A stretch of DNA of 46,754 nt from Candidatus Paceibacter sp. (GTDB lineage Bacteria > Patescibacteriota > Minisyncoccia > Phycocordibacterales > GCA-2747955). Each line of letters starts with the position of its first letter. The first letter of the stretch is position 1. Position numbers and translations under genes: made by a program. Positions 38,161-38,273 of the stretch are shown piece after piece. Below the pieces are notes generated by a model. It searched no databases, was not told the origin of the DNA, and saw nothing but the letters and a program-made list of their open reading frames with translations. The stretch covers positions 1 through 46,754 of the forward strand of contig JABACC010000012.1 of assembly GCA_014237915.1 (NCBI GenBank), given 5' to 3'.

Positions 38161-38273
38161 GATCACTCAATTTTTTCTAGGAATAAACCTAGGTGGGTTC
38201 TGTGCGGATTTTCCAAAAAAAATCACTAACTCTCAGATCCCTAAAAAATTTTTAGCTAGAAAATAAAGTGATC
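38161..38273 (-). ncRNA. candidate compact 6S-like structured RNA
   Basis: Ends pair (gatcactttattttctag / ctagaaaaaattgagtgatc); internal gggatctg/cagaaccc stem; TATAAT at 38285-38280 puts +1 at 38273; terminator directly downstream. Confidence 0.55.

Follow-up and report, generated by a model that had tools for sequence, protein, structure and literature searches.

Between the gene of a VirB4-like ATPase and a pilus-like operon, the window (the whole stretch of 46,754 nucleotides analyzed here) contains a gap in which an earlier note had placed an unannotated structured RNA, possibly a minimised 6S RNA. The question raised by this locus is whether the 113 nt at 38161-38273 form the gene of a small RNA and, if so, of which kind, or whether they are better regarded as a palindromic piece of DNA. 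To our knowledge, the non-coding RNAs of Patescibacteria are almost unknown, and a small RNA encoded beside secretion and pilus genes would, if verified, be a useful entry point. The sequence analysis described below tentatively favors a minus-strand gene for a small RNA, standing alone and specific to the lineage. We regard this as the single most likely reading and give it a little less than an even chance; a MITE-like DNA element comes next.

Genomic environment of the element

The window comes from the genome of an uncultured, ultra-small marine patescibacterium (27% GC, translation table 11) and has nearly every gene on the plus strand; its source is a 58,550-nt scaffold of a marine metagenome. 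In an independent Logan assembly of the same sample (L087) the element and the region around it are letter-for-letter identical, and a break of one Logan contig at 38077-38106 is explained by an adapter-bearing branch. The gene for the VirB4-like ATPase (36308-38119, plus strand) is convergent with the candidate RNA. It follows genes for a DksA/TraR zinc-finger protein, PrgI and a TrsD/TraC-like protein, and together these genes are the chromosomal type IV secretion cluster of these bacteria. On the other side of the gap there is a five-gene operon (38358-46353), whose first product (245 aa) is weakly similar to the CPR pilus protein PamT; the operon also encodes a WxL-interacting-domain protein, and its last protein is 1135 aa long. 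Type IV secretion and pilus genes are thought to be used by these epibionts on their hosts.

Predicted promoter and terminator

The earlier note had described a minus-strand TATAAT (38285-38280) followed by six nucleotides (AAATAA) and then by the G that opens the closing stem, and this arrangement is indeed present. The hexamer is directly preceded by TG, which gives the -10 element TGTATAAT (38280-38287, minus strand), and a weak -35-like sequence, TTTAAA, is located at 38307-38302 with a spacer of 16 nt to the -10. The predicted transcription start, G38273, is the first base of the closing helix and lies 7 nt past the hexamer.

The motif TGnTATAAT occurs 13 times in the window, in at least 10 cases at the start of a gene or tRNA. 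In five of the 13, at 12471-12482, 15663-15674, 21727-21738 (minus strand), 26254-26265 and 35193-35204, the hexamer is followed by exactly six bases and the ATG of a gene (starts at 12480, 15672, 21727 on the minus strand, 26263 and 35202), an arrangement that implies leaderless mRNAs. The element has TGTATAAT-N6-G, the spacing of the leaderless genes of the window. This promoter pattern of the genome is usable for calling promoter-to-terminator units. It also bears on gene annotation: by the TGnTATAAT-N6-ATG rule the start of the PrgI gene moves from 35160 to 35202, and that of the zinc-finger gene probably from 34804 to near 34813. Shine-Dalgarno sites are not evident upstream of the genes in the window.

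The full -10 element TGTATAAT is found only five times in the window, counting both strands. One copy, at 38338-38345 on the plus strand, precedes the ATG of the first pilus-like operon gene (38358) by 10 nt, so that it and the copy at the element are a divergent pair about 50 nt apart; two others precede gene starts by 4 and 39 nt. The two diverging promoters are separated by three exact tandem copies of TTTTTTAAA (38290-38316). The 84-nt spacer beside the element is 94% A+T (6% GC) and has only five G/C positions, two of which are the G of the twin TG dinucleotides. Chance alone would place about one bare TATAAT on each strand of such a spacer, and consequently the weight is carried by the TG and the exact spacing alone. 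Given the genome's own TGnTATAAT pattern, the case for the putative promoter is stronger than the earlier note could know, and there is fair, indirect evidence that the predicted minus-strand promoter is real.

Directly after the element, as had been reported, there is a two-way intrinsic terminator, the hairpin AAAUAAAAAAUCCG-UUUUA-CGGAUUUUUUAUUU (38159-38127), with T-runs on both strands. It begins one base past the element and is common to the virB4 operon on the plus strand and the candidate RNA on the minus strand. On the minus strand the stem is followed by the U-tract UUUUUUUAAAUUAA (38113-38126), which overlaps the region of the virB4 stop codon; this minus-strand U-tract (UUUUUUAUUUUUUU) is at least equal in quality to the one on the plus strand. 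The full transcript model of 155 nt, consisting of rod and terminator, has a predicted energy of -45.1 kcal/mol. That the locus has no ORF was confirmed: none of 30 aa or more exists in 38120-38357, only fragments of 20-22 aa. These small ORFs were rejected as candidates, having no leaderless promoter in a genome that shows no apparent Shine-Dalgarno use.

Predicted fold and composition

In the minimum free energy (MFE) fold the minus strand of 38161-38273 is an imperfect rod of 113 nt with about 40-50 bp. It consists of the helices P1 (1-8/106-113), P2 (11-18/94-101) and P3 (33-40/72-79), a middle of weak A-U/G-U pairs (23-28/84-89) and an apical hairpin (50-56/61-67) with the loop UUUG. The closing helix has its first base at the predicted +1, and its far end is a single base away from the terminator hairpin. 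Three of the helices proposed in the earlier note, namely the closing stem (GATCACUU/GAGUGAUC and UUUUCUAG/CUAGAAAA), the GGG.AUCUG/CAGA.ACCC stem and the apical GAUUUUU/GAAAAUC hairpin, are present, with pair probabilities of 0.8-1.0. The central bubble and the two small hairpins flanking it are disfavored: the hairpins have pair probabilities of 0.01-0.03, and the MFE fold closes the middle with six A-U/G-U pairs at a probability of 0.8-0.94. The structure drawn in the note has an energy of -20.9 kcal/mol, 8.8 kcal/mol worse than the MFE, and opening the middle is predicted thermodynamically to cost 4.8 kcal/mol. The predicted shape of the RNA is a continuous rod without a large central bubble. 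Its longest single-stranded stretch would be 4 nt, and its internal loops are only 4x4.

The MFE is -29.7 kcal/mol (z -3.1) for the minus strand and -26.1 kcal/mol (z -3.4) for the plus strand; both strands fold about equally, and none of 200 shuffles equaled either of them. By energy the element is only in about the top 2-3% when all 113-mers of the 46.7-kb stretch are compared, and there are 170 inverted repeats of at least 16 nt within 120 nt in the window. In composition, with 32.7% GC against 17.7% for all intergenic DNA, the element is the GC-richest non-coding 113-mer in the gaps of the window. In A+T-rich genomes, a GC island is an established sign of a structured RNA gene. The minus-strand fold includes five G-U pairs and no A-C opposition that would favor the plus strand, a strand bias that could also be caused by mutation bias.

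Comparison with known RNA families

A window-wide cmscan at the gathering score returned three tRNAs only. At the permissive threshold of E<=10, 24 weak matches with scores as low as about 10 bits were obtained for 38050-38420, none of them to a 6S or SRP family. STnc540 (33 bits) and MCS4 (23 bits) were discarded, both being below their cut-offs and driven by the terminator hairpin. No Rfam 6S model was matched even at E<=10, and the likeness of some segments to 6S sequences that the note had put forward was not borne out by the Rfam scans.

A miniature RNA of the 6S type would be a promoter mimic binding the sigma-70 holoenzyme, with the region 19-32/80-93 as its open bubble. The element shares with 6S RNA (SsrS; RF00013, 6S-Flavo RF01685) the outline of a rod with a closing stem (about 16 bp) and a terminal stem (about 17 bp), a weakly paired middle (14x14 nt, held by only six A-U/G-U pairs, which can be opened for the 4.8 kcal/mol given above) and transcription predicted to start and end at its own signals. 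Moreover, no 6S RNA of Patescibacteria is reported in the literature searched; a divergent form would on that account be conceivable, but nothing observed here points to one. Known 6S RNAs are about 150-200 nt long. The rod has 113 nt, or about 150 nt with the terminator hairpin, and the element is thus about 40% shorter at 113 nt; it matches no 6S covariance model, and both the MFE and the ensemble close the bubble. It is also not conserved, whereas a housekeeping RNA would be expected to be conserved where VirB4 is 71-81% identical. On these grounds, the short length, the predicted lack of a stable bubble and the missing Rfam match and relatives, the 6S proposal is unsupported, and we rate it as very improbable. 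The same low rating is given to a wider version, according to which the rod would represent a miniaturised RNA of the 6S type, or another one that sequesters RNA polymerase or a protein, in this marine Paceibacteria lineage, transcribed back-to-back with the pilus operon from the twin TGTATAAT promoters and belonging to a fast-evolving set of rod RNAs that takes the place of 6S RNA in ultra-small bacteria.

The 4.5S or small SRP RNA resembles the element in being a hairpin RNA of about 114 nt with paired 5' and 3' ends in a small genome. The apex of the element is GAUUUUU-UUUG-GAAAAUC, a UUUG loop on a 7-bp A-U stem, in contrast to SRP RNA, whose domain IV has a GNRA tetraloop and AGCA/AGG loops. 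As neither the SRP models (RF00169) nor the domain IV motif is matched, an SRP RNA was rejected. The readings as a retron, attC, CRISPR or oriT were likewise rejected, their partner genes or motifs being absent nearby.

Search for relatives and synteny

The VirB4-like ATPase shares 71-76% identity with the VirB4 proteins from 80 species genomes of Patescibacteria/Paceibacteria, and its best identity among 5.8 billion proteins is 81%. The regions downstream of virB4 in relatives were searched, as the note had advised, and yielded no homologous element to align: blastn, nhmmer and a single-sequence covariance model (R1) found none in 89 related loci (884 kb), comprising the 80 virB4 loci of other species and 9 loci of the nearest relatives. 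Nor was a homologue present in JGI metagenomes, two viral-contig scans, phages or plasmids, the plasmids giving noise at E=1 only. A metagenome scan for the pattern GGGATCTGAGAG..CACAGAACCC had a single match (L090), which is unrelated and due to chance. The best non-self matches of R1, palindromes located after virB4 in L002, were also dismissed, as they fit any model of a hairpin to the same degree, those of many miRNA precursors among them. With no homologue in the sets searched, the predicted structure is without covariation support.

In the 80 species loci the next gene usually follows virB4 within 50 nt. The nearest relatives have ftsW, on the other strand, after virB4, and the neighbors differ at both flanks. 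The only homologue found of the downstream operon is at 3780-9493 of L091 (37% identity for the first gene), where the operon block is conserved but follows pyrG and has no such element beside it. The operon after pyrG in L091 and the virB4-ftsW order in the nearest relatives indicate that the gap is a synteny breakpoint. As far as the compared sequences tell, the element sits at a junction found only in this genome.

Palindromic DNA elements and other explanations

The breakpoint is one of several features that would fit a palindrome acting at the DNA level, either a MITE-like insertion or a decayed member of a dispersed hairpin or REP-like family beside the virB4 terminator, with any transcription incidental. 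Its terminal inverted repeats (GATCACT..TTTTCTAG and CTAGAAAA..AGTGATC) are of the kind seen in MITEs, GATCACTTTATTTTCTAG matching the reverse complement of GATCACTCAATTTTTTCTAG at about 16 of 20 positions. Its 113 bp and its whole-length hairpin also agree with bacterial MITEs, for which a size of about 113 bp and such a hairpin are typical. An exact 7-bp direct repeat, TAAATAA, abuts the palindrome on both sides (minus strand; 38274-38280 at the 5' end and 38154-38160 at the 3' end, the latter in the outer part of the terminator stem), and taking out the element together with one TAAATAA restores an intact terminator palindrome (empty site TGTATAATAAATAAAAAATCCG). However, TAAATAA occurs 60 times in the window on both strands, and each abutting copy overlaps another signal and is explicable by it, one as the promoter spacer and the other as the A/T-tract of the terminator. 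CTAG is rare in the window (49 sites), yet three are in the element. The plus-strand apex GTGCGGATTTTCC..AAAATCAC resembles the hairpins GAGGCGGATTTT..AAAATCCGCC at 18966-18993 and 33947-33979. Against the former, the 18.9-kb copy, the apical half scores 19-20 (null 4.8 +/- 2.7), which ties the best non-self match in the window; the two have the 9-mer GCGGATTTT in common and collinear blocks equally spaced. Over the full length, on the other hand, the alignment to the 18.9-kb hairpin region scores 7-11 against a null of 6 +/- 4.6, which is not significant, and GC-weighted local scores between the element and the hairpins of the window were not above noise. The 18.9-kb copy also folds into a rod of about 100 nt (-29 kcal/mol) without being a gene of its own, which shows that rods of such size are not unique to the gap. 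The overall similarity is to the MITEs and palindromic repeats of other bacteria (Correia elements of Neisseria, RUP of S. pneumoniae, REP/BIME, Rickettsia palindromic elements), which likewise are about 110 bp long and have terminal inverted repeats, a flanking direct repeat, a whole-length hairpin and an adjoining terminator. Unlike these, the element is present in one copy in about 57 kb of contig, has no family members or look-alikes in public collections and no transposase nearby, and is flanked by a 7-bp repeat of low complexity. A DNA element also leaves the TG-extended -10 with its exact N6 spacing unexplained. We consider it the less probable explanation, though one to be taken seriously. 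It and the small RNA gene are not exclusive, as capture of a hairpin element could have given rise to an RNA gene.

The palindrome could, alternatively, be a neutral accident of an A+T-rich gap, its promoter- and repeat-like features being coincidental. The abundance of inverted repeats in the window, the modest energy rank, the expected occurrence of TATAAT in the spacer, the lack of conservation and the lack of an RNA run with the sequence all accord with chance. What chance explains poorly is that a GC island coincides with a TG-extended -10 at exact spacing, that the helix ends match the predicted start and the terminator, that the arms contain G/C and are not A/T runs, and that none of 200 shuffles folds as well; coincidence appears improbable to us. 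Still further down the scale, and no more credible than a 6S-type RNA, is a cis-acting DNA or RNA element serving the neighboring operons, for example an insulator or cruciform separating the type IV secretion core genes from the pilus operon or a palindrome upstream of the pilus promoter that binds a regulator. The position of the element, with the virB4 operon's terminator on one side and the PamT-like operon's promoter on the other, and the phased TTTTTTAAA repeats adjoining it would suit such a role, but 113 bp far exceeds operator palindromes, and no such element accompanies either the homologous operon of L091 or the virB4 clusters that relatives have.

Candidate small RNA gene

What tips the balance toward the small RNA gene is the combination of the terminator, the GC island, a promoter at exact spacing and five G-U pairs, the last of which favor the strand of the promoter. 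The features by which such a gene is recognized, a promoter, a terminator and the absence of an ORF, are all found at the locus. The earlier proposal of a structured RNA with its own promoter and terminator is plausible and is strengthened by the promoter pattern of the genome; transcription itself is only inferred: the element sequence was found in a single DNA metagenome run and in no RNA sequencing run.

If the small RNA gene is real, transcription would start at about G38273 from the TGTATAAT promoter, which would diverge from the identical TGTATAAT promoter of the pilus-like operon. The RNA would fold at once into the imperfect rod, and transcription would stop at the hairpin and U-tract, which are also the terminator of the virB4 operon on the opposite strand, to yield a product of about 150 nt. 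With at most four unpaired bases in a row, the rod is more likely to be a double-stranded protein ligand or a substrate of RNase III than an antisense regulator pairing through a seed. A duplex-energy scan of the gene starts revealed no credible mRNA target; the 18.9-kb hairpin was rejected as one, this match reflecting the likeness of one palindrome to another. As to its origin, the element may stem from the genome's own population of palindromic hairpins.

Like stand-alone sigma-70 small RNA genes, the putative gene is an intergenic promoter-to-terminator unit of about 150 nt that has no ORF and diverges from an operon. In contrast to them, its predicted body is a single long rod exposing no seed region, it has no known partner, and it is not conserved. 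As an orphan of a single genome its main value would be as one more promoter-to-terminator rod unit or palindromic hairpin in these genomes.

Other structured sites

The hairpins at 18966-18993 and 33947-33979 are perfect (GAGGCGGATTTTGC-TTCG-GCAAAATCCGCC and GAGGCGGATTTTCTC-GAAG-GAGAAAATCCGCC) and related: they have flanks in common, and the bases adjoining the loop differ between them by compensatory changes. The hairpin at 18966-18993 forms the core of the rod of about 100 nt, which extends across a gene junction, and that at 33947-33979 falls within the coding sequence of TatD. Local folding in the window is most stable in the gap 15508-15671, which includes a G+C-rich perfect hairpin of 13 bp (GAGTGCGGCCCCC-TTT-GGGGGCCGCACTC) followed by the leaderless promoter TGATATAAT. 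A near-perfect palindrome with 24-bp arms is located at 33533-33583, between a diverging repeat-protein gene and tatD, and is one of only four ungapped palindromes of that size in the 884 kb of related DNA scanned. At the end of the window, the promoter TGTTATAAT (46488-46503) is found just upstream of a tRNA-His-like 95-bp tandem array.

On the same scaffold, about 9 kb before the start of the window, there is a non-coding stretch (955-1078 of L088) with a fold of -39.8 kcal/mol (z -6.1). It lies upstream of dnaX and has a terminator at its end, directly before the dnaX promoter. In some bacteria the SRP RNA is found upstream of dnaX; the stretch in L088 matches no Rfam family.

In the related bacterium L002 (JAHIOZ010000122.1, 2700-2991) two long perfect palindromes, of 67 and 101 nt, occur just after virB4. 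Both are located at one and the same position, marked by the slash, in a repeated unit (TCTTYGCGAG/CGTGGCRATCCAG), and the contig ends just past the second one. These palindromes look like a site-specific palindrome insertion or a repeat family.
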